This document shows, piece after piece, positions 12,808 through 31,128 of a stretch of DNA of 64,000 nt. The DNA comes from an uncultured Gemmataceae bacterium (GTDB lineage: Bacteria > Planctomycetota > Planctomycetia > Gemmatales > Gemmataceae): the NCBI GenBank assembly GCA_963750165.1, contig CAVVPN010000003.1:2656001-2720000 (forward strand), read 5' to 3'. Each line of letters begins with the position of its first letter. Within the stretch, counting starts at the first letter, position 1. Under the pieces are notes generated by a model. The model was not told the origin of the DNA. It saw only the letters and a program-made list of their open reading frames with translations, and ran no database searches. The translations under genes and the position numbers were made by a program.

Positions 12808-12884
12808 GCGAAAAGGGGGCCAGGTCAGGTTTCACACGATTTTGAGAATCGTATGAAAACTGACCTGGCCCCCCTTTTCGCTTC
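12808..12884. repeat. 75-bp REP-like hairpin (GCGAAAAGGGG..CAGGTCA / TGACCTG..CCCCTTTTCGC), copy 1
   Basis: Inverted arms around ACGATTTTGAGAATCGT; near-identical at 17211-17285. Confidence 0.88.
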
Positions 12885-13107
12885 CGGCGCTGGCCGCGGC
12901 CTGCGGTGACGTGCAGACGCGCGGAGCATGCGGAGACTTCTCGTCACCAATTTAAGACTGTCCGGGTGGCTTGTCGTTTTCCCGGCGTTTCTTACTTGCA
13001 ATCCGAAAAGGGGGCGGTTACGCGGCCGCCAGCGTAAAACTGGGAAAACCGAGGCGCGGCGAGCGCCCCAATCCATGTTCGGCCTTGTAGCCGTAAATAA
13101 TGACCCC
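12885..13107 (+). mobile_element. Dispersed cargo-carrying repeat, copy A (shorter; inverted relative to B and C)
   Basis: Reverse complement of 16834-17100 and 22105-22334 with few substitutions; ends AAATAATGACCCC. Confidence 0.85.
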
Positions 13108-13340
13108 TCTCTACAGGTCCCATCCCCGCCCCCGTCGCCTGTTACTTCATGCCCGGCGTCGGCTGGTACGCCCGTTCAGGGGAGTGCCACCCGACTGATT
13201 GTTGGAAAAAAATGTCCGAAAATACTTTTTCCGGCCCCGCCGGCTACTTCCGCATACCAGACTGAAGAGGGACGGATTTGGTCCACTCCCCGTAGCCGCC
13301 GCCCCCCACCCGCGCTTTCCTTTTCCCAACGGAGCAGCTT

Positions 13341-16300
13341 ATGTGGCCCGCGTTCCGCAGTCCGTCCTGTCGCCCACCGATTGCCCGCCCCCGCGGCGCC
13401 CGCGCCGCGGGCGCACCTCGCTCCACCTGGAGATGCTTGAGGACCGTACCGTCCCGACGAACCTGGTCTACTGGCACGGCGGCTCCATCCTGCAAAACGT
13501 CATCGCCGTCCCGACCTTCTGGGGCACCAGCTTCGCGTCGCAGTACAAGAGCCTGGAGACCCAGGAAACCAACTTCACGTCCTACCTCGTCAACAGTACC
13601 TACATGGACATGATGTCCGAGTACGGCACGCCGGCCACCTCGGCGATTGAGGAAACGGACCAGCCCGGCGGCGCTCCGGTCTTCACGTCCACCAACCACC
13701 CGGCCCACACCATCGGCCGCGGCTCCGTCGGCGACGTGGAGGTGGACACCGACCCCGGCGCGCCGACGACCGGCACCACCGTCACGGACGGCCAGATTCA
13801 GGACAACATCGCCGGCGACCTGTTCGCCAACACTCTGGACTCGCTGGGCGTGCCGGGCGTCTCCGCCCTCGACGAGAGCTTTTTCGACAACAACTACCAG
13901 TCGCTCTACCCCGACGTGCTGTTCGTCGTCTACCTGCCGCCGGGCGTCAACGTGCAGGACGCCAACGGCCAGACCCTCTACCAGTTCCAGAACGGCTCGG
14001 AGGAGCGCGGCTATCACGGCACGTTCGGCCTGGACCAGCAGGGCAACGTGGACCGCTTCAGCAACGGCAGTGACGCGCTCGGCTCCAACGACGTTTTCGT
14101 CCACTACGCGGTTGTGCCGTACCCCACCGGCGGCGTCAGCACGACCAACTTCGACCAGGTGACCATTACCGCCTCGCACGAGATCATGGAGGCGGTTACC
14201 GACCCGCTGCAGGAGACGGACAACAGCGGCAACATCACCCAGGCCGGCTTCATCATCGACAACCCGACGGCCTTCGACAGCCACCTCGGCAGCGGCGACA
14301 ACGAGGTCGGCGACCTGGTGGAGTTCCAGCCGCCCAACCTGTCGGTCTCGGAGCTGGGCGGCTACGCCGTGCAGAACATGTTCTCCAACGTGGTCTACAA
14401 CGCCAACCACGCCTCGCACGGCATCAAGGCGCCCGCCGGCTCCACGAGCTACGGCGGCTTCGCCCTGGCCGACGGCGACGACAACCCGCAGCACACGAGC
14501 GCACCCGTGCTCGGCAGCACCAGCACCTCGGTCACCACGCTGCCCAACGGCCACACGCTGACCATCTCCACGACGACGCTGGCCAACGGCACCGTCACCG
14601 GCACCTTCAGCGCCCAGCTGGACCCGTCGGGCCTCGGCACCACCGAGGCCGACGTCAAGCCGGTGGACGGCATCAACGTCTACAGCTTCAACGAGACCAT
14701 CACGCCGCAGGGCATGCTGACCGGCAACTTCACGATCACGGCCGAGGGCAAGGCACTGGGCTACACGGTGCCGGACGCGCCGTCGCTGGTGCCCAGCACT
14801 GCCCTGGCCCTGACCGCCGTGTCGCCCAACAACACCGCGACCAGCTGGACGTTCTCGGGGCAGCTGGCCAGCTTCACCGATGCCGCCGGCGCCAGCGACG
14901 CCGCCAGCATCAACTGGGGCGACGGCAGCCTCACGGCCGGCACCATCGTCGCCGACGCGAACGTGCCCGGCCAGTTCGACGTGAAGGGCACGCACACCTA
15001 CGCCGCCGGCTCGACCGGCACGAACCGCTCGGTGTACGTCATCATCCACAAGTCGGACGGCAGCCAGGTGGTCGCCGACGCGCAGATCATCAACGGCGTC
15101 GCGGACCTGGTGGCGACGGCGCTGCCGGCGGACGAGGTGCAAGGCTCGTCGGCGGTGGTCGCCCTGGACGTGTTCTCGGACCTGGGCGGCCTGCACTCGG
15201 CCAGCTGGTACACGGCGACGGTGAACTGGGGCGACGGCACGGTCACGTCCGGTTCGGTGGTCGCGTCGGGCAGCCAGTTCGTGGTGCTGGGCAACCACCC
15301 CTATCAGCAACCCGGGCACTACCACGTCACGGTCACCGTGCAGGACATCGACAGCAGCAAGGACACGTTCCCGAGCACCGTCACGGTGCGGGCCACCCAG
15401 CCGAGCGCCATCGGCGGCTTCGACCCGACGACGGCGACGTGGTACCTGCACAACGGCGTCGGCGGTGGCGCCGCGGACGCCGGCTCGTTCCAGTACGGCG
15501 CGCCCGGCTGGATTCCGGTGACCGGCGACTGGACGGGCAGCGGCCACGAGGGCATCGGCGTCTACAACCCGGCGACGGCGACGTGGTATCTGCGCAATTC
15601 GGTGACGCCGGGCCCCGCCGACGAGGTGATCCAGTTCGGGGCGCCGGGCTGGCTGCCGGTGGTCGGCGACTGGAGCGGCGGCGGTCACACCGGCATCGGC
15701 GTGGTCAACCCGAGCACCGACACGTGGTATCTGCGCAACGAAGACAGCCCCGGGGCCGCGGACGCGGGCACGTTCCAGTTCGGCGCCCCCGGCTGGCTGC
15801 CCGTGGCGGGCGACTGGAACGCGACGGGCCGGGCCGGCATTGGCGTCTACAACCCGAGCACGGCGACGTGGTATCTGCGCGGCGAGGCCAGCGGCGGGCC
15901 AATCGACGTTGGCACCGTGCAGTACGGTGCGCCGGGTTGGACGCCGATCGTCGGCGACTGGGGCGGCCACGGCCACACCGGCCTGGGCATCCTCAACCCG
16001 GCCGGCGGCGCCTGGTATCTGCGCAACGAGGTGACGGCTGGCCCACCGGACGCCGGGGTGTTCGGCTACGGTTCGCCGGGCTGGCTGCCGGTGGCGGGCG
16101 GGTGGATCGGTTCGGCCCGCAACGGCATTGGCGCCGTCAACCCGGCGACGGCGACGTGGTATCTGCGCAACCAGGCCAGCGCCGGCGGCGTCACGGTCGG
16201 CGCCTTCCAGTTCGGCTCGGCCGGCTGGATTCCGCTGGTGGGCGACTGGAACGGCACCGGCCACGACGGCATCGGCGAGTACGACCCGAGCACGGCGACG

Positions 16301-16822
16301 TGGTATCTGCGCAACGAGGACAACGGCGGCCCCGCCGACGCGGGCGTCTTCCAGTTCGGGGCGCCGGGCTGGATTCCGGTGGTCGGCGACTGGACGGGCG
16401 CGGGCCACACGGGCATCGGCGTCTTCGACCCGCGCACCGCCACGTGGTATCTGCGCGTCGAGGCCAGCGGCGGCCCCGCCGACGCGGGCGTCTTCCAGTA
16501 CGGGGCGGCCAACTGGATTCCGGTGACCGGCGACTGGACGGGGGCCGGCTACACGGGCATCGGCGTCTTCGACCCGGGCACGGCGACGTGGTATCTGCGC
16601 ACGCTGGCCAACCCGGGTCCGGCCAACGCGGTGTTCCAGTACGGGGCGCCGGGCTGGCTGCCGGTGGTCGGCGACTGGTCGGGCGACGGCTTCGACGGCA
16701 TCGGCGTGTACTACCCCGGCAGCGGGGCGTGGTATCTGCGCTCCACCCCGAGCGCGGGGCCGCAGACGATGGCGTTCGGTTACGGGTCGCCGGGCTGGAA
16801 GCCGGTTGTTGGGGAGTTTTAG
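13341..16822 (+). CDS. Large secreted protein: LExLEDR motif, HExxE domain, PKD-like Ig domains, 10 FG-GAP-like repeats
   Basis: LHLEMLEDRTVP; HEIMEAVTDP...NEVGD; INWGDG/VNWGDG; ten ~47-aa GxxxPxxxxWYLR...GDW repeats. Start uncertain (ATG 13341 plus frameshift, or GTG 13343). Confidence 0.85.
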
Positions 16823-16833
16823 GGAGAGGAAAC

Positions 16834-17208
16834 GGGGTCAGGTTTATTTACGGCTACAAGGCCGAACATGGATTGGGGCGCTCGCCGCGCCTCGGTTTTC
16901 CCAGTTTTGCGCTGGCCGGCGGCCGCGTACAGACGTGTGTGTCTTGCGCGGCCGCCGACCAGCGCAACCGCCCCCTTTTCGGATCGCAAGTGAGAAACGC
17001 CGGGGAAACGACAAGCCACCCGGACAGTCTTAAATTAGTGACGAGAAGTCTCCGCATGCTCCGCGCGTCTGCACGTCACCGCAGGCCGCGGCCAGCGCCG
17101 CGACGTGCGCCGGCGTCGTGCCGCAGCAGCCGCCGACCAGCACCGCCCCCGCCCGCACCACCTCCGGTAACCAGTCCGCCAGCTGCCCCGGTGTCACCGG
17201 ATACCCCC
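16834..17208 (-). mobile_element. Dispersed cargo-carrying repeat, copy B, with homocysteine S-methyltransferase 3' fragment (17030-17207)
   Basis: Nearly identical to 22105-22440; minus strand encodes YPVTPGQLADWLPEVVRAGAVLVGGCCGTTPAHVAAL. Confidence 0.85.
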
Positions 17209-17210
17209 AG

Positions 17211-17285
17211 GCGAAAAGGGGCCAGGTCAGTTTTCACACGATTTTGAGAATCGTATGAAACATGACCTGACCCCCTTTTCGCTTC
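17211..17285. repeat. 75-bp REP-like hairpin, copy 2
   Basis: Same arms and loop as 12808-12884, same orientation. Confidence 0.88.
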
Positions 17286-17483
17286 CGAGAACGATGCCGG
17301 TGGGCACCGCTCGGCTCTCGGGATGTCGAATGACGATTTTCAGAATCGTGTTATCGGTCTCTGCCCCTTTTATCCTCCCCTTTTATTCTCTCGCGCTTTT
17401 TCTTTGCTATCAGCGGGTTATGAGAAGCGTCCCCGTTTTCTCCCGGTGGCTTTTTTCTCTGGCGTCTCGCCGCAAGCGCGTTG

Positions 17484-20400
17484 TTATTCCGGGGGCTGAT
17501 TTTCTTCCTGGGCTGTCGGGAGCAGTTGCCCGAGAAGTTTCGCAATCTGCTCGGCCTCGGGTAAGCCGTGCTCCCGTGCAGTTTGCAGTGCCCAGAAGAG
17601 ATGGCCCAGCGCCGTTTCTATCTCCTCTGTACGGCCGCGCTGCAACAGCGTCAGGCCGATGTTGGTCCGGCAGACGATCAGTTCGCGCACGTCGCCGAGG
17701 CGCTCGTAGACGGGCAGTTGCTTCTCCTGGCGGATGGCCAGGGCCTCGTCCAGCCGGCCCCGCGCGAACAGGATGTCGGCGACCTTGCCGTGCGCGACCG
17801 CCAGGGAGCGCACGTCGCCGAGGCGCTCGTAGACGGGCAGTTCCTTCTCCTGACGGATGGCCAGGGCCTCGTCCAGCCGGCCCCACCGGAACAGGATGTC
17901 GGCGACCTTGCCGTGCGTGACCGCCAGGGAGCGCACGTCGCCGAGGCGCTCGTAGACGGGCAGTTCCTTCTCCTGGCGGATGGCCAGGGCCTCGTCCAGC
18001 CGGCCCCGCGCGAACAGGATGTCGGCGACCTGGCCGTGCGTGACCGCCAGTTCGCGCACGTCGCCGAGGCGCTCGTAGACGGGCAGTTGCTTCTCCTGGC
18101 GGATGGCCAGGGCCTCGTCCAGCCGGCCCCACCGGAACAGGATGTCGGCGATGTCGCCGTGCGTGACCGCCAGGGAGCGCACGTCGCCGAGGCGCTCGTA
18201 GACGGGCAGTTCCTTCTCCTGGCGGATGGCCAGGGCCTCGTCCAGCCGGCCCCGCGCGAACAGGATGTCGGCGACCTTGCCGTGCGTGACCGCCAGGGAG
18301 CGCACGTCGCCGAGGCGCTCGTAGACGGGCAGTTCCTTCTCCTGACGGATGGCCAGGGCCTCGTCCAGCCGGCCCCGCCGGAACAGGATGTCGGCCAGAC
18401 GGCCGTTGGCAACGGCTTCTTGATTCTCTTTGCGGAGTTTTGCGAATAGCCCGATGGCCTGGCGAATGTACTGTTCCGCCTTCGCCACGTCTCCCTTGCT
18501 AAACAGCAGTTCGCCAAGTTCGGCCAGGGCCTGCGCCCGTTCTTCGGTATCCTGTGTCCCCGCCACTTCCAGGGCGCGTTCCAGGAGTTGCTGTGCGTCC
18601 TCGGCATCCCCGACAATCTGACAGGACAGTGCGGAAAGACGAAGAAGGTGAAACGGCGGCACGGCGTGCGCCTGGTCAATGACTGCGATGGATTGCCTCC
18701 CCAGGGCGGCGGCGTCCCGGTAGGCGTGCCGGGCGCGCAACATGCCGACCACCTCGCCGGCATCGGCGGCCACGACCTCGGCGTCGCGGGCCAGGATGCC
18801 CATGCGCGTCAATTCTCTGTTCAGGGGCAACGGTCGGGCCTGCGCCCCCGCCGCCCCGCCCCACGCGGCAAACAGTGGCTTGCAAACCAGCGTCGCCAGT
18901 TGCGCTGCTTCCGCCTGGTTCATGATGACGAACCTTCCTGTTCCAGTTGAGGCCGCACCAGTGGATCGACCAGCGCGTGATCGTGGCCGCGGCGGAAATC
19001 GAGCGGGTTTTCAAACCGATTGAGCAGGCCCAGGTCGAACTGGCGTTGCACGGCCGCGACGGCCGCCGCGGCATCCGCATGGTGCCGCGGATGAAGAAGT
19101 GGCAGCACCGCTTGCGGCGCCGGGATTTCAAACAGCGTCGAGCGGCGCAGCAGTTCGCGCTCATCGGGTGTGAGCAACCCGAGCAGTTCGTGGATCGCGA
19201 CGATGTTGAGGAACTCGCGCAGGCGCGGTTCGCTGGTCTGTCCTCGCGTCCGGAATTCCTGGGCGGCCTCCCGGAAGCGCTGGAAGGCGTCCGCGCTTTC
19301 GGCCCGCAGGCGGGCCGCGCGGCTCATGAGGCTCGGACTGCCGAACGCATCGTCGATGGCGCCGGCAAGTTCCTGGAAGAGTTGCTGCTCACTATCGAGC
19401 GCCTCCTGGGGGCTGATACCCGGGTTGTGCTTGATCTGCTCCGCGACCCGTTGCCGGGCCAGTTGCAACGTCTGCCGCAGCATTTCGCCGGGGGCCATGT
19501 CCGGCAGCTGGTAGAACGCCAGGCGCCGGTCCGCGTCCTTGCCGTTCACGACGCAGGTGAAGCGATACCGGCACGTGATCAGCAGCAAGGAGTCGTGTTC
19601 CGTGGTCGCGAAGGCGGTCACCAGGGCGGCGACCCCCGCCTCCAGTTCCGGCCTGACGCGGTGCAGCTTGCCGGGCATCGATTCCAGGGCACGTTCAAAA
19701 TCGTCCACGACCAGGAGGATCGGGCGCTGCTCGGCGCGGCCGCCGTGCGTGTGCAGCTCGCGCAAGGGGCCGCGCAACAGCCGGGCCAGCACCAGGGTGA
19801 AGGCGTCAGCCGTCAACTCCCCGGAGCCGGCCTCGTCGAGGATGCGCTGGACCTCCACGGCGCCGGCGTGTCCCTCCAGCGCGGTGGACGAGCGGAGCGC
19901 CCGCAGGATGCCCGCCGGCGTGTAGTCGTTGAATACGACCACCAGGTCGTAGGATGGGAAGCGCGAGGCCAGGCGGCAGGCGAGACTGCTCTTGCCGTGT
20001 TGCCCGAGTCCGTGGATCACCGTGGGTTGGTGCGTGCGCAGACAACGCAGGACGTCCTGCAAGGGGCGGCGGCGGCCCACAAACTCATACCGCGACGCGA
20101 CGGGGATCTGCTTGTTGATCCTGTCGAGGAATTCCTGATCCGCGCGGCCGGCGTCGTGCCAGTGGCGGCGCCGGTCGCCGCCGGTGATCTTGCCGCCGCC
20201 CTGCGCCCAAAAAAGACGCGGGCCTTGTGCCATTCCGTTTTTACTTCCCTGTCTCCGTGGCGGCCCAGCGTTTTCCGGGCCTGGGCGACGGCGGCCTCCA
20301 GCGACTCCCGCATGGCCAGGCGCCGGTACAGTTCGGCGGCGAAACAGGTGGCGCCCACGTCGCTCACCTTGCCCGCCCAGCCGAGGACGGCCGGGAAGCC

Positions 20401-21210
20401 CTTCAGGGCCAGGGCGCCGGCGAGCGAACCGAGCAGCTGATCCGGCTGGGCAGTGGTGCACGCCGACAGGAACAGCAACCGCGGCCGAAACTCGCCGAAC
20501 TGCTCCGCGATCTCCCGCGCCCCGACCAGCTCCGGTTCGCCGAGTTCGGTCTCCAGCGCCAGCACGGGGCGGTCGGTCAGGTTGCCGTGGCACGATAGGT
20601 GGACGATGTCCACGCCGCCGTCGCCCTCGGTCTCCTCCTGAATGCGCCGGGCGAGCGCCTCGAGGTTGCCGGTGTCCTCGCACAGGAAATCGACCCCGGT
20701 CGCGTGAACAGCTTGCAGGATGGCCTGTTCTTCCGCGTCGTGGTCGAGCGGCATGGCGTTGCCGCGCGGGTCGGCGGCCATGAAGACCATGGCCGGGCGG
20801 TAGCGCGACGCGGCGGGCGGTTCCCGTCGGGGGAGCAGGCGGCGGACCACGGAAAACGACAGGAACTCTGCCTCCGCGAGGTAGCCGTCCTCGTCGCGGA
20901 GCAGTTCCCAGGATACGTCCAGGAACAGCCGGTTGCCGCCGGCTTCGAGGACGAACTCGAGCCATAGCGCGTCCGGCGTTTCGTCGCGGTAACGGCCGAG
21001 CAGCCGGTCGGCACCATCGAGCCATTGATAGAGTTCCCGGCCGATCTGAGAACGCCGGTCGGAAGTTGCCGTGCCGCCGGCGTAATCCTGGAGCCAGGTG
21101 GCGAACCGCCCGGCGTCGGCGGGGGTGGTAGGCCGCTGACCCAGGTCGCGCCCGTCGCGCGTGGCGCGGAGATGGGTCGCGGACAGTGAAATGCAAACGG
21201 GCGAGGCCAC
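17484..21210 (-). CDS. CHAT (caspase-like) protease - P-loop NTPase (STAND-like) - TPR protein; apparent frameshifts near 20210 and 18925
   Basis: CHAT dyad DIVHLSCHG / LLFLSAC; Walker A GLGQHGKS; Walker B LLVVDDFE; LLITCRY; TPR repeats in 17484..18923. Confidence 0.85.
17686..18395 (-). repeat. Six near-identical 123-bp (41-aa) TPR coding repeats
   Basis: CGCACGTCGCCGAGGCGCTCGTAGACGGGCAGTT at 17686, 17809, 17932, 18055, 18178, 18301. Confidence 0.95.
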
Positions 21211-21264
21211 GGGTCGCTCCCGATCTGAGAAGCAGGGGCCGGAGGTCGCACGCGGTGGGCACGG

Positions 21265-21711
21265 TTACTGCGCAGGGTTCGCCACCGCCGCCGTCTCCGG
21301 GATGACGGCCACGTCCTTCATGACCTTGCAGGTCAGGTCGTGGAGCTGCTCGGCGTCGCCTTCGTGGAGGAACAGCGCCTTGTCGCCGATGATCGCGCGG
21401 ATGGTGGTCGGCAACTTTTGCTGGGCCCAATGGATCAGACCCAGCCAGTGCAGAACAAGGGCCTCGCGCCGCTTCTCGTACCCTTCGCGGATCTTATCGT
21501 AGACGTGGAACAGCACCACGGCGACTTCCAGAACCACGAGGGTTGCGTGGAGCGGGTCGATCATCTTGTCCGCGCCCGTTCCGGCCAGATCGGTCGATGG
21601 AGCGGCAGTGCGGATGGTGGGTCTGATCTTGAACCGGGCTTCCATCAGGTCGGCGAACTGCTGTGCGACGATGGCGCTGTCCTTGCCCTGGACGCGGAAC
21701 TCGATAGACAT
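21265..21711 (-). CDS. Small protein with central hydrophobic helix, EACC1-like candidate partner of the CHAT protein
   Basis: 148 aa; GGGGG SD-like run before ATG; flexible linker then DPLHATLVVLEVAVVLF; co-oriented 54 bp upstream of the CHAT gene. Confidence 0.7.
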   Translation of the reverse strand: MSIEFRVQGKDSAIVAQQFADLMEARFKIRPTIRTAAPSTDLAGTGADKMIDPLHATLVVLEVAVVLFHVYDKIREGYEKRREALVLHWLGLIHWAQQKLPTTIRAIIGDKALFLHEGDAEQLHDLTCKVMKDVAVIPETAAVANPAQ

Positions 21712-21838
21712 GGTGCCCCCCTTGGGCTTCTGGTTGGGATTGCTTTCAGGTTTATTTTCTCCCCAACCTCCATGATGTCAAGCCCCGGGTAGTCCCGGGC
21801 ACGGAAAAGGGTCCGATTAAAAGGAAGGGACAAAGAGG

Positions 21839-22028
21839 AACCGCACTGGCTACCTTTGGAGGTAGCTAACCCCAGTCGGGCAAGGGGTTAGGTCAACGAA
21901 GCCTTGGATTTTTCAGCCACATTCCGGGTGGGCAAACGAGGCGGGCCGGAGGTCGGCCGGCGGCTCAACCCAGGAAACCCAGGGAAAAATCAGGGATCGA
22001 GACCCCGCCAAAGATAGCCAGTGCGGTT
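21839..22028. mobile_element. 190-bp MITE with 21-bp TIRs and 11-bp target duplication
   Basis: AACCGCACTGGCTACCTTTGG ... CCAAAGATAGCCAGTGCGGTT (20/21 match); GGACAAAGAGG at 21828-21838 and 22029-22039. Confidence 0.92.
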
Positions 22029-22104
22029 GGACAAAGAGGGCTCATCTCATTCTGGCAGCTGGCTCGTCGGAATGGGTTATTTCTTCGCTAAAACCCACAT
22101 ACCA

Positions 22105-22480
22105 GGGGTCAGGTTTATTTACGGCTACAAGGCCGAACATGGATTGGGGCGCTCGCCGCGCCTCGGTTTTCCCAGTTTTGCGCTGGCCGGCGGCCGCGTA
22201 ACCGCCCCCTTTTCGGATTGCAAGTGAGAAACGCCGGGGAAACGACAAGCCACCCGGACAGTCTTAAATTAGTGACGAGAAGTCTCCGCATGCTCCGCGC
22301 GTCTGAACGTCACCGCAGGCCGCGGCCAGCGCCGCGACGTGCGCCGGCGTCGTGCCGCAGCAGCCGCCGACCAGCACCGCCCCCGCCCGCACCACCTCCG
22401 GTAACCAGTCCGCCAGCTGCCCCGGTGTCACCGGATACCCCCTTTTCGCTTCTTCCTGACCCCCTTTTTCGCTTCTTCCT
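22105..22480 (-). mobile_element. Dispersed cargo-carrying repeat, copy C, followed by tandem CCCCTTTTCGCTTC half-arms
   Basis: Direct repeat of copy B lacking its ~37-bp internal hairpin half; GGCCGTTP fragment within 22264-22440. Confidence 0.85.
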
Positions 22481-27179: not shown

Positions 27180-28566
27180 GGCAACGTTTCAAAATTAATC
27201 CGCAGTTCCCTTCTACAATAACCCTGGCCCAACCGGGGGCCTGGTTTGGAAGGGAGGCAGAGCCGTGGACATCCACCAATGCCAATGCCCTCACTGCCGA
27301 CAAGGTGCGGACCACCCCGAACGCGCCCTCCATTACCGGCTCAACCTTCTCCTGAGCCGGTTGGATGAGCACCAACGCCGGTGGTTGGCAGCCTGGGAGT
27401 CCCAGAAGGTCGGCCGCGGCGGCGACCGCCTACTGTCCCTCATCACCGGCCTGAACGTGGAAACCATCCGGCGCGGTCGCCGGGAACTCGAGGACTCCCT
27501 GCGGGACTGCCCCCCGGATCGCATCCGCCGGCCCGGGGCAGGACGGCCCGCTGTGAAAAAAAAGTGCCGGGCCTCATGAACGCTTTGAGGCAGCTGGTTG
27601 AGGAGCAGACCGCCGGCAGCCCGCAAACCTGTCAGAAGTGGGTGCGCCACAGCGTCGCCTACCTGAGCACGCGGTTGCAAGGCCAAGGCTTCGCCGTCAG
27701 CCCCGCCACGGTCTATCGCCTGTTGGACGACCTGGGCTATTCGCTCAAGGCCAACCGCAAGCGCTTCACCGGCCCGCCTCACCCAGACCGGGACCGGCAG
27801 TTCGCGTACATCGCCGGGCAGCGGCGCCGCTTCGCCATCCTCGGCCAGCCGGTGATCAGCGTGGACAGCAAGAAAAAGGAGTTGATCGGCAACTTCAAGA
27901 ATGCAGGGCGGCAGTGGTGCCGGCACGCCACGGAGGTCAACGCCCACGACTTCCTGGACGACGCCTTGGGCCGGGCCGTCCCCTACGGGGTCTACGACGT
28001 GCGCCAGGACCGCGGCCATGTCTACGTGGGGTTGTCCGCCGACACCGCGGCGTTCGCGGGGGACGTGATCGGCCGGTGGTGGCGCGGCGAGGGACGGCTG
28101 TGGTACCCGCAGGCCGACGAGTTGCTGATCCTGTGCGACGCGGGCGGGAGCAACAGTTGCCGCGTGCGGTTGTGGAAACAGCGCCTCCAGGAGGAGTTGG
28201 CCGACCGCTGGGGGCTGTGGGTGACGGTGTGCCATTACCCGCGGGGGGCGTCGAAGTGGAACCCGGTGGAGCACCGGCTGTTCAGCCGCATCAGCGTCAA
28301 CTGGGCGGGGGAGCCGCTGCGAACCGTGGAGACGCTGTTGGCCTGCATCCGGGGCACGGAGACGGACGCCGGTTGGGCGGTACGTGCGACGTTGCTGGAC
28401 GCGGAGTACGCGAAGGGGGTCAAGGTGCCGGACGCAGAAATGCAGACGTGGCGCCTCCAAAGGCATGCCGTCTGCCCCAGTTGGAATTACACCATCAAGC
28501 CACGTTGGACAATATTCTAACATCAGCACCCAGGTGTAAGCTGCGGACTAATTTTGAACGGCTGCC
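27180..28566 (+). mobile_element. ISAzo13-family insertion sequence, 1387 bp
   Basis: IRs GGCAACGTTTCAAAATTAATCCGCAG / CTGCGGACTAATTTTGAACGGCTGCC; TAA duplicated at 27177-27179 and 28567-28569. Confidence 0.93.
27265..28520 (+). CDS. ISAzo13-family DDE transposase in two ORFs joined by -1 frameshift at A8G (27556-27564)
   Basis: ISVDSKKKELIGNFKN, LILCDAGGSN, SKWNPVEHRLFS, WNYTI. Confidence 0.92.
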
Positions 28567-29211: not shown

Positions 29212-31128
29212 ATGATCGATAGCCTTACTGTCGCCGAAGTCGTTTCTGCTATCCTCGAACAGGGTGAGATAACCAAGGACCAGATTCTGGAGACATGGGG
29301 CATCGCGGAAGAGGACTACAAGGAACTGCAGAAACAGGTTCTGAAGGGCAATCAGTCCATTGAAAAGGGGTCAAGGCACAGCGGCGGGTTCGTCGTCAAG
29401 AAGCGCAAAGGGAGACTGCCGGAGGAGAGCACCACCGAAGTGCTGCTGCTGCGGACAGACTGGGAAAAAACTGCCGTGGCGCGACTGGCCGAACTACTGC
29501 AGCACGGGAAACTCGAAGACTTGCTCGGCACGTTGCTACAAACAGTGCGGCAGGTGCGTCTTGCGGAAACAGGAGTCGATCGCCGCGGCCAGAAGTCAGA
29601 GTTGGCCACGGCGCTCGTTCTTCAGCGCGGGATCGATTTGTTCTGTGAAACCGATATCCGCGAAGCCGTGGGCAAGTCGGCGAGCGTTCCCGCGCCCAGT
29701 CGCTGGCACCCAGGTAAGCCGGCCGCAATCGACTTCGTCGCTAACACCGGCTTTCCCCGCGAACTAGCGGGGTTACCCACTGAGGAAGGACTGCCCGATT
29801 TTGAATACCTGGAAGGCCGATTTCGGCTGCGCCCCCTTGAGCCTTTCCAGTGCGAGGTGAAGGAGGAACTGAGCCATACTCTTCAAGATGCAGGCAAGCG
29901 CACGATTGTGACCTTGCCGACGGGGGCCGGCAAGACCCGCGTCGCTGTCGAGACCATTCGCGATTGGCTGACGAATCGGTATGACGTTGCTGCCCAGGCC
30001 CTCACAGGCGGTGTTGTCCTGTGGTTGGCGCATACAGAGGAACTGTGCGAGCAAGCATGCACTTGCTTCAAGCAGGTTTGGGAAGGTTCGGAGAGCGTTT
30101 GTCCGCTGCTCCTAGTGCGCTTCTGGGGCCGCTACACACAGGACCTCGCAAAACACCGGCAGACGCTGGAGCAGGTTCTGACGCGCCCGGGTGTCCTGGT
30201 CTCCACACCGCAGCGGATCATGAACCTGCTGGACCGGCGAATCGAAGGCAGCGAGGCGGTACTCGCTGACTTGACCGGGACCCTGGGCCTGGTAGTCATT
30301 GACGAAGCACATCGTGCCGCGGCGCCTTCGTACCAGCGCATCATGGACAACCTGATTCCAGAGGAGCGCCCGCTGTCGGTAGTCGGCCTCACGGCCACGC
30401 CGTTTCGCATGGAGTACGTAGGAGACGACCCCGAAGAGGGAACACGGGAGCTCAAGGAGATTTTTCACCACCTGATCGAGCCGATGCAGACCCTGGGTTC
30501 TGAGCCAAGACTCAAGCTGCAAGACATGGGCGTCCTCGCGCGGCCGGAGTTGAGAACGATCAAGACGCAGACAAAAATGCGGCTGCCGACGGTGCCCACC
30601 AAGGGAACGCTTTCCGAGGAGGAATTGGAGCGGCTTGATCGAATTCTGGCCGTGCGCACGGACAACACTCCACGGCGCCTCGCGATCCTGAAAGAATTGC
30701 TACCGCTCGCCAAGAACCCTGGACATTCCATCCTGTACTTCGGCCCCACCGTGCGCGATGCCGAATGCATGGCCTATCTATTGCGCCGGGAAGGAATCCC
30801 CGCGGCAGTCGTGAGCGGCAACACCCGCGATGTTACACGGCGCCAGGTGGTCACCGAGTTTAAGCAGAAAAAAATCCGGGTGCTTTGTAACTGCGAAGTT
30901 CTGACTACTGGCTTCGATGCCCCCCAGATCAGTCACATCGTGATGGGACGGCCGACGGTCAGTCGGGTTCTGTACGAGCAGATTGTCGGCCGCGGGCTCC
31001 GCGGGCCGAAGTTTGGCGGGACAGCCACCTGTGTCATTCTCAACTGCGAGGACAACTACACGGGTGACCCACCACCGCTTGGTTATGAATCATTCCGCAG
31101 GGTTTGGCTCGGATCCACGGGTCGGTAG
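29212..31128 (+). CDS. SF2 DEAD/DEAH-box helicase (ResIII/SSL2-like) with N-terminal extension
   Basis: LPTGAGKT, DEAH, GLTATP, VLTTGFDAP, QIVGRGLRG. Confidence 0.93.
   Translation: MIDSLTVAEVVSAILEQGEITKDQILETWGIAEEDYKELQKQVLKGNQSIEKGSRHSGGFVVKKRKGRLPEESTTEVLLLRTDWEKTAVARLAELLQHGKLEDLLGTLLQTVRQVRLAETGVDRRGQKSELATALVLQRGIDLFCETDIREAVGKSASVPAPSRWHPGKPAAIDFVANTGFPRELAGLPTEEGLPDFEYLEGRFRLRPLEPFQCEVKEELSHTLQDAGKRTIVTLPTGAGKTRVAVETIRDWLTNRYDVAAQALTGGVVLWLAHTEELCEQACTCFKQVWEGSESVCPLLLVRFWGRYTQDLAKHRQTLEQVLTRPGVLVSTPQRIMNLLDRRIEGSEAVLADLTGTLGLVVIDEAHRAAAPSYQRIMDNLIPEERPLSVVGLTATPFRMEYVGDDPEEGTRELKEIFHHLIEPMQTLGSEPRLKLQDMGVLARPELRTIKTQTKMRLPTVPTKGTLSEEELERLDRILAVRTDNTPRRLAILKELLPLAKNPGHSILYFGPTVRDAECMAYLLRREGIPAAVVSGNTRDVTRRQVVTEFKQKKIRVLCNCEVLTTGFDAPQISHIVMGRPTVSRVLYEQIVGRGLRGPKFGGTATCVILNCEDNYTGDPPPLGYESFRRVWLGSTGR

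Follow-up and report, generated by a model that had tools for sequence, protein, structure and literature searches.

Within a 64-kb stretch of the genome of an uncultured Gemmataceae bacterium (the window; G000:C3:2656001-2720000 of a 9.6-Mb, 12-contig assembly), we found three co-oriented minus-strand genes that recur as a unit in related loci. They encode a small EACC1-like protein (gene 1), a CHAT caspase-like protease joined to a STAND NOD module (gene 2), and an arm followed by a TPR sensor (gene 3). We read the locus as a divergent EACC1-caspase abortive defense system whose CHAT-STAND core would be controlled in trans by the detachable arm-TPR protein, and we put the probability of this reading at about 0.6. 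Gene anatomy, conservation and motifs are our own data, and cleavage, pore formation and defense are carried over from a preprint on an EACC1-Avs system. What is new is that the sensor arm is consistently detached in a presumably lethal system. The mechanism in the original prediction, in which a single NLR-like protein senses through its TPRs and its CHAT domain cuts a neighboring small protein to release a membrane-active fragment, is plausible and for the most part known already.

A gene boundary between the NOD module and the TPR sensor

The original prediction placed a 148-amino acid (aa) gene upstream of one protein of about 1240 aa, read in three frames. The small open reading frame (ORF) is present, and 54 bp separate it from a downstream GTG at 21210. 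The single large protein was refuted. The GC content of third codon positions confirms that the reading frame switches at ~20210 and 18920, and the second switch, taken for a frameshift near 18925, proved to be a true gene boundary. Junction DNA was seen in five distinct loci of the clade (the window, L006, L007, L008 and L012), and in 5/5 a 4-nt stop/start overlap (ATGA or GTGA) follows the STAND winged helix, with a purine-rich stretch 6-10 nt before the arm-TPR start. Because this overlap is kept among NTPase parts only 52-57% identical to the window's, we regard 18920-18923 as a conserved gene boundary and, for that reason, the TPR part as a gene of its own, of 479 aa; a single frameshift, at ~20210, is left. 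On sequence comparison, the locus is a three-gene operon and not two genes with two frameshifts. Such stop/start overlaps are readily mistaken for frameshifts, which calls for caution in annotation. L009, with a frameshift near the arm and no stop/start overlap, was not counted as split, and duplicate loci (L011 of L008, L031 of L009, L043/L046 of L033) were counted once. Programmed frameshifting was considered at both breaks and rejected: by eye, the loci have no slippery run in common at the NTPase/TPR junction, and the T6 run at the other break is missing in relatives.

The NTPase has at least eleven longer relatives. Of the three closest, P0002 (770 aa) and P0004 (772 aa, encoded on a contig of 208 kb) end where the window NTPase ends, and P0003 continues into TPRs; the stop of P0002 and the fusion of P0003 are known from protein sequence alone. 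In the AlphaFold model of fused P0003 (predicted local distance difference test, pLDDT, 86), the split point falls after residues 760-765, which form the last helix of the winged-helix domain, and before residues 769-790, where the arm has its first helix. When 19 CHAT-NTPase rows were placed in a quick tree, P0003 grouped with six split rows in a single clade (support of 100 in the Shimodaira-Hasegawa-like approximate likelihood ratio test), the other full-length relatives being fused. The simplest reading of this tree would be one split followed by one re-fusion, in P0003. The arm and sensor, expected within the NOD chain of a STAND protein, lie on a separate gene at all five clade junctions seen.

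The terminal TPRs that had been predicted are present, in gene 3: TPR_12 matched with 113 bits (E 5e-33), and six near-identical 41-aa repeats are encoded by 123-nt DNA repeats that are 94-96% identical. Repeat number ranges from 2 to 8 across relatives (6 in the window, 4 in L007, 8 in L008 and 2 in P0003). L012 carries two tandem arm-TPR genes with a duplicated junction and 8 and 5 repeats, respectively. The fused and split forms are 68-69% identical, so that P0003, P0002 and the window locus provide a matched set for comparison.

The split might have no function of its own. A one-base ancestral change could have been rescued by translational coupling, leaving halves that are permanently bound and act as a fused protein, and we hold this to be possible, at somewhat below even odds. 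It is compatible with the defense reading. The nesting of fused P0003 within the split clade fits it, as do the arm genes, which always directly follow the core and occur nowhere else in this genome, and the similarity of the two L012 arms in their N-terminal parts. A neutral accident fits less well with an arrangement kept across proteins just 52-57% identical, each with its purine-rich site, or with the whole second arm-TPR gene of L012, which is possible only with a split design.

At the other extreme, the arm-TPR protein could be an antitoxin-like guard, the sole brake on a self-activating CHAT-NOD core that would fire on a TPR ligand or on loss of the arm through host shut-off or a phage protease. 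We consider this form of the model doubtful. If it were true, extra arm genes as in L012 would be exchangeable sensors for one lethal switch, and NLR sensing would meet toxin-antitoxin logic, with a pore-forming family that has no name yet acting downstream. Under control in trans more generally, the operon would be an NLR split by nature, whose lethal output is easy to score and in which sensor swapping, and inhibition versus activation in trans by the arm and sensor, become testable.

The CHAT-STAND core

The CHAT domain of gene 2 matched PF12770 with 96 bits against a cut-off of 24 (E 3.7e-27). Its predicted dyad is intact, the His (HLSCHG; H208, 20587-20589) and the Cys (LSAC; C251, 20458-20460) being invariant in 17/17 aligned relatives. 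The Walker A (GLGQHGKS, 19988-20011) and Walker B (ILLVVDDFE, 19694-19720) motifs were likewise found. The NTPase part gave sub-threshold matches to AAA_16 (E 3e-5) and nSTAND1 (E 3e-4) and has the parts of a STAND NOD module, namely a nucleotide-binding domain (NBD) with Walker A/B, a helical domain (HD) with a GSP motif, and a winged helix. By fold, the fused relative P0003 best matched PH0952 (6MFV; Foldseek E 1e-12), with further matches to CED-4, Apaf-1 and Avs3. Among curated Avs models, only Avs3a gave a match in NCBIfam, at E 0.22, and none matched in PADLOC 2023, although newer Avs families may be missing there.

The small protein and its linkage to CHAT genes

The small protein has ten homologues at 36-52% identity and a sister group that was reached by profile and recovered independently by hhalign (97%, E 5e-11, 119 columns). 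Conservation of the pair, which the original prediction named as a check, was borne out: a CHAT gene adjoins the small gene in 8/9 other loci with DNA context. In seven of them the small gene is upstream, with CHAT directly downstream (L005, L006, L007, L012, L009, L032 and L033). In the ninth locus, L044, the family member is part of a TIR fusion. Six of the nine loci had been found via the small protein alone, and CHAT was adjacent in 5/6. The small and CHAT genes share an ATGA overlap in L009, L032, L033 and L034, and the outer members L032, L033 and L034 adjoin fused CHAT-STAND-TPR genes. One further match, L045 (E 3.6e-5), lies within a 1240-aa frame whose visible ORF is kinase-like; it was judged spurious and left out of this count.

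No small-protein member was seen near ten distant CHAT-STAND loci of the class. Among seven plasmid CHAT-STAND matches, of which four were inspected, the upstream ORFs in Herpetosiphon and Acaryochloris lay outside the family, and the Ruegeria plasmid had no ORF annotated directly upstream. A 107-aa ORF (L036 2521-2844) located 9 nt before the Acaryochloris CHAT-STAND-TPR gene has a central hydrophobic, Gly-containing segment and, by eye, a similar layout, with no family or Pfam match. In two loci the operon is preceded by a kinase-like gene of 1050 aa, directly in L006 (4028-7168) and at 4 kb, with genes between, in L007 (14400-17657).

AlphaFold2 predicted for the gene 1 product a beta-alpha-beta N-terminal part, a flexible linker, a hydrophobic segment, a helix with a conserved W95, a beta-hairpin and a final helix, with strands at residues 3-9, 32-36, 103-108 and 111-114. 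The linker is disordered in the model and ends in K-M-I-D52-P, where D52 is at least 90% conserved (alignment A3); both subfamilies retain a basic/Asp motif immediately in front of the hydrophobic segment. The hydrophobic stretch spans residues 50-68 (Kyte-Doolittle mean 1.92), has a central Glu, and recurs in the family, with a best hydropathy window of 1.1-2.3 in 20/20 members scored. On the fold check, Foldseek gave no match at E ≤0.001, and the fold search gave only common ferredoxin-like folds, weakly, over residues 1-110 (Z ≤6.6). No pore-forming fold was among the matches, a result that excludes nothing, and a complex prediction with two CHAT copies and the small protein scored 0.00, which speaks neither way. 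A word-index search with the small protein returned itself alone, and single-sequence scans of the locus made no finds.

Relation to EACC1 and to known systems

The gathering cut-off of the EACC1 family, PF19953, is 23.6 bits. The best score in the sister group was 18 bits, in 1/15 proteins (P0033, E 0.0029, spanning 2-105 of 107), and none of seven further members matched. The small family nonetheless has EACC1 traits, being paired with a caspase-superfamily gene, usually on its 5' side, and having a single hydrophobic segment flanked by short alpha+beta parts. A Pro-small-Gly/Ala patch is found in the sister subfamily. EACC1 occurs in the top three named ESM clusters, where it accounts for 16-50% of members (score 0.86-0.87); we take this as a lead. 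By eye, the EACC1 of Ktedonobacter racemifer (Table S1 of the preprint cited below) has its elements in the same order as the gene 1 product, with a putative cleavage site, D49, at the place of D52. Bona fide EACC1 was sought in the own genome, 301 genomes of the phylum, three plasmids and five further genomes, with only one 25-bit match, containing a stop, among the phylum genomes. The small protein looks EACC1-like by layout, with family membership below the Pfam cut-off.

In K. racemifer, KrAvs12 cleaves KrEACC1, and the C-terminal fragment alone is toxic and leaks liposomes (Evans et al., bioRxiv 10.1101/2025.11.14.688446 = PMC12642450). Since EACC1 cleavage by a caspase-STAND protein followed by membrane disruption has been shown in that organism, the mechanism considered here would be a variant of a described system and not a new one. 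The window locus differs from KrEACC1 and KrAvs12 in its CHAT-type protease and in having the sensor on a separate gene, and the small protein differs from KrEACC1 (114 aa) in its length (138-148 aa), its score below the PF19953 cut-off and the Pro after the Asp. EACC1-caspase-STAND systems had been described before (PMC7159879, PMC8195603, 10.1101/2025.11.14.688446). A close likeness is also seen to EACC1 'System 4' (Kaur et al. 2020, PMC7159879), in which a 5' gene with a single transmembrane segment precedes a 3' caspase-superfamily gene with STAND and repeats; that system has been described with two genes and mainly from actinobacteria, whereas the present one has three genes, occurs in planctomycetes and involves a subfamily without the glycine patch.

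A split sensor also has a precedent. Avs1 is a protease-STAND defense family with a split-TPR variant, as here, but it senses terminase and pairs with a metallo-beta-lactamase effector, and the available text gives the variant one sentence (PMC13601566). In the accessible part of a STAND survey, split proteins are mentioned in the methods only (PMC13581612). Contacts of the arm with the NBD and of the sensor with the NBD keep TPR-STAND proteins closed (PMC6468293). PH0952 and MalT share the order NBD-HD-winged helix-arm-TPR with our locus and differ in being single chains with transcriptional output, in which arm and sensor inhibit in cis (PMC6468293). For the three-gene form, we found no account in the literature searched, although the supplements of PMC12642450, PMC13601566 and PMC7159879 may bear on its novelty.

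Proposed mechanism

In bacterial gasdermin-protease pairs and in Craspase (Csx29-Csx30), a caspase-like protease activates an adjacently encoded substrate. The small protein has no sequence or fold match to gasdermin or Csx30, and the locus has no CRISPR link. We propose that translational coupling yields an arm-TPR protein that would bind the CHAT-NOD core in trans and keep it shut, in the way PH0952 and MalT are held closed in cis by their own arm and sensor. Binding of a foreign protein by the TPRs, or loss of the arm, would free the core, which would oligomerize and bring CHAT domains together. The CHAT domain may then cut the linker of the gene 1 product at G-x-[KR]-x-D-P, after D52 or a nearby Lys, removing the N-terminal part. 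The C-terminal fragment with the hydrophobic segment would oligomerize in the membrane and cause cell death, as for the K. racemifer EACC1. A role in conflict is suggested by the patchy spread of the small gene (4/252 genomes of the family and 4/267 of the order, own included, many of these genomes being incomplete), by a member with a C-terminal TIR domain (L044, G721:C842, 221-1006 on the minus strand; TIR_2, E 5e-14), and by the Azospirillum copy L034, which adjoins transposase, TniB and TniQ genes. The L044 fusion gene is divergent from a NERD nuclease gene.

Several findings weigh against this proposal. The gene 1 product had no Pfam, NCBIfam or PADLOC match, and the PF19953 cut-off was reached by no member, the window protein and 11 A1 members giving no match at all. 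The glycine/small-residue patch in the transmembrane center is missing from the window's subfamily. D52 is followed by Pro, and caspases usually disfavor Pro after the cleavage Asp. The hydrophobic segment has a pLDDT of ~50 and is partly strand in the AlphaFold model; the stretch itself stands as predicted, and calling it a helix is a matter of hydropathy and analogy. Gene order is reversed on the Azospirillum plasmid L034, where CHAT is directly upstream of the small gene, and no CHAT gene was seen on the 1.7-kb contig of L044. The motifs visible in KrAvs12 differ from those of the CHAT-type protease here. There is no defense island in the window, the flanking genes encoding DUF1501, DUF1587-type and secreted repeat proteins. 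Finally, the split is not required, because fused P0003 nests inside the split clade.

Some of these points would suit a small protein that is not a pore-forming substrate. It would instead recruit or activate the protease, as a sensor, an adaptor or an anchor in the membrane, and the protease would act on itself or on another protein. The Pro after D52, the missing glycine patch and the TIR fusion of L044, which suggests adaptor use, favor such a role, first proposed for EACC1 by Kaur et al. (PMC7159879). We nevertheless judge it unlikely, since the one tested EACC1 is cleaved to a toxic C-terminal fragment (10.1101/2025.11.14.688446) and in both subfamilies the flexible linker carries a basic/Asp motif, itself conserved, directly ahead of the hydrophobic segment. 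A role in signaling or programmed development, and not in anti-phage defense, appears less probable still. It would agree with the window, where no known defense gene is adjacent and PADLOC gave only generic TPR and SAVED-CHAT matches, and defense and non-defense STAND clades are interspersed (PMC13581612); it sits poorly with the patchy distribution of the module, its frequent inactivation, and the occurrence of a transposon context and a TIR fusion. Protease activation of the small protein thus remains the best reading, given the CHAT linkage, the EACC1-like layout and the precedent, and what falls away from the original prediction is the single NLR-like protein, the sensor arm being separate throughout the clade. 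If the reading is true, protease-gated pore defense extends to an EACC1-like family that has no name, escapes current profiles and is present in Planctomycetota, Verrucomicrobiota and Alphaproteobacteria.

The frameshift at 20210

The break at ~20210 was correctly taken for a frameshift and is found in the window copy only. It lies inside a T6-G3 run, where one base is missing against the frame of the relatives, and L006, L007, L012, P0002, P0003 and P0004 are in frame across the site. The window copy would be functional only if the break is an assembly error. That the frameshift is real, with the operon inactive here and only a CHAT fragment made, is evenly balanced against that outcome and compatible with the defense reading of the family. 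Frame switches are infrequent in the assembly, at 30 in 589 kb of aligned paralogous coding DNA (1 per ~20 kb), or 17 in 561 kb (1 per ~33 kb) without five near-identical multi-copy queries, so that 0.13-0.21 would be expected in the 4.2-kb operon. Lesions also occur in 4/9 related loci from other assemblies (a TAG in the TPR part of L006, two frameshifts in L007, a frameshift in L009 and a TAG in the CHAT part of L032), which makes real decay about as likely as error. On the side of error, the break sits in a homopolymer, near-identical multi-copy elements of the assembly show scattered frame switches resembling sequencing indels, and all other motifs of the operon are intact. Frame switches also separate near-identical copies of mobile elements, and other 'split gene' finds in the assembly need comparison with relatives. 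The in-frame stops of L006 (near 57-59) and L032 (7744-7746) are both TAG and probably ordinary nonsense changes.

Genomic surroundings

The features of the locus are collected in Table 1. The promoter candidate, 43 nt before gene 1, was the single match in 17200-22200, where shuffled sequence gives a mean of 0.2.

Table 1 Features of the three-gene locus and its flanks (window coordinates)
Feature	Position	Strand	Evidence
Gene 1, 148-aa EACC1-like protein	21265..21711	-	10 homologues at 36-52%; AlphaFold2 pLDDT 70.8
Gene 2, 5' part, CHAT caspase-like protease domain with His/Cys dyad	20206..21210	-	PF12770 E 3.7e-27
Gene 2, 3' part, STAND NOD module, real stop at end	18920..20212	-	Motifs, Pfam, relatives P0002/P0004
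Gene 3, 479-aa arm (~173 aa) and TPR sensor	17484..18923	-	TPR_12 E 5e-33
Stop/start overlap ATGA, purine-rich ribosome-binding-like stretch 9 nt upstream	18920..18940	-	NTGA overlap in relatives
Frameshift in T6-G3 run, private to the window copy	20206..20214	-	Relatives read through
Sigma-70-like promoter candidate, TTGACA-16-GAAAAT	21754..21781	-	Consensus match only
Dispersed 375-nt repeat, left copy	16834..17208		Repeat and genome comparison
Dispersed repeat, right copy, 37 nt shorter	22105..22442		Repeat comparison
~200-nt element with inverted ends, putatively MITE-like (miniature inverted-repeat transposable element)	21828..22028		95% identical to C11:19099-19298

The direct repeats reported to flank the pair exist, and their role as ends of a specific unit was not upheld. 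They are dispersed, with four near-full copies in the genome, three on C3 and one on C12, and each copy joins a hairpin-rich stretch to a copied 3' gene end. The gene from which this end derives is intact at C4:529570-530430, and from its GGCCG motif we take it to encode a homocysteine S-methyltransferase. A role of the repeats as att sites was not supported, since they are dispersed and carry a host gene end. The region is rich in mobile remnants, including an ISAzo13-type transposase at 27381-28520; its GC content is that of the genome, and the repeats do not define an insertion. The dispersed repeat also occurs at 12885-13100, and ~540 nt from its copy at C12:63773-64134 stands a further copy of the ISAzo13-type transposase that the window carries. 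The MITE-like element has 20-nt inverted ends, and near its C11 copy there are, by eye, a fragment of an integrase-like ORF (~1 kb away) and a transposase-like ORF (2 kb away). A 66-nt palindromic element has two copies, at 12808-12877 and 17214-17282, and none elsewhere in the genome.

The neighboring genes belong to planctomycete-type families (DUF1501, DUF1587 and DUF1549). A 1207-aa protein encoded at 13199-16822 on the plus strand has a PKD-like domain and nine C-terminal repeats of 47-48 aa and is probably exported; by eye, its N-terminal part contains a possible HExxE metalloprotease motif. Just after the ISAzo13 transposase, a lower-GC stretch encodes a superfamily 2 helicase (29212-31128, plus strand; ResIII/DEAD/Helicase_C), a possible accessory or defense gene.

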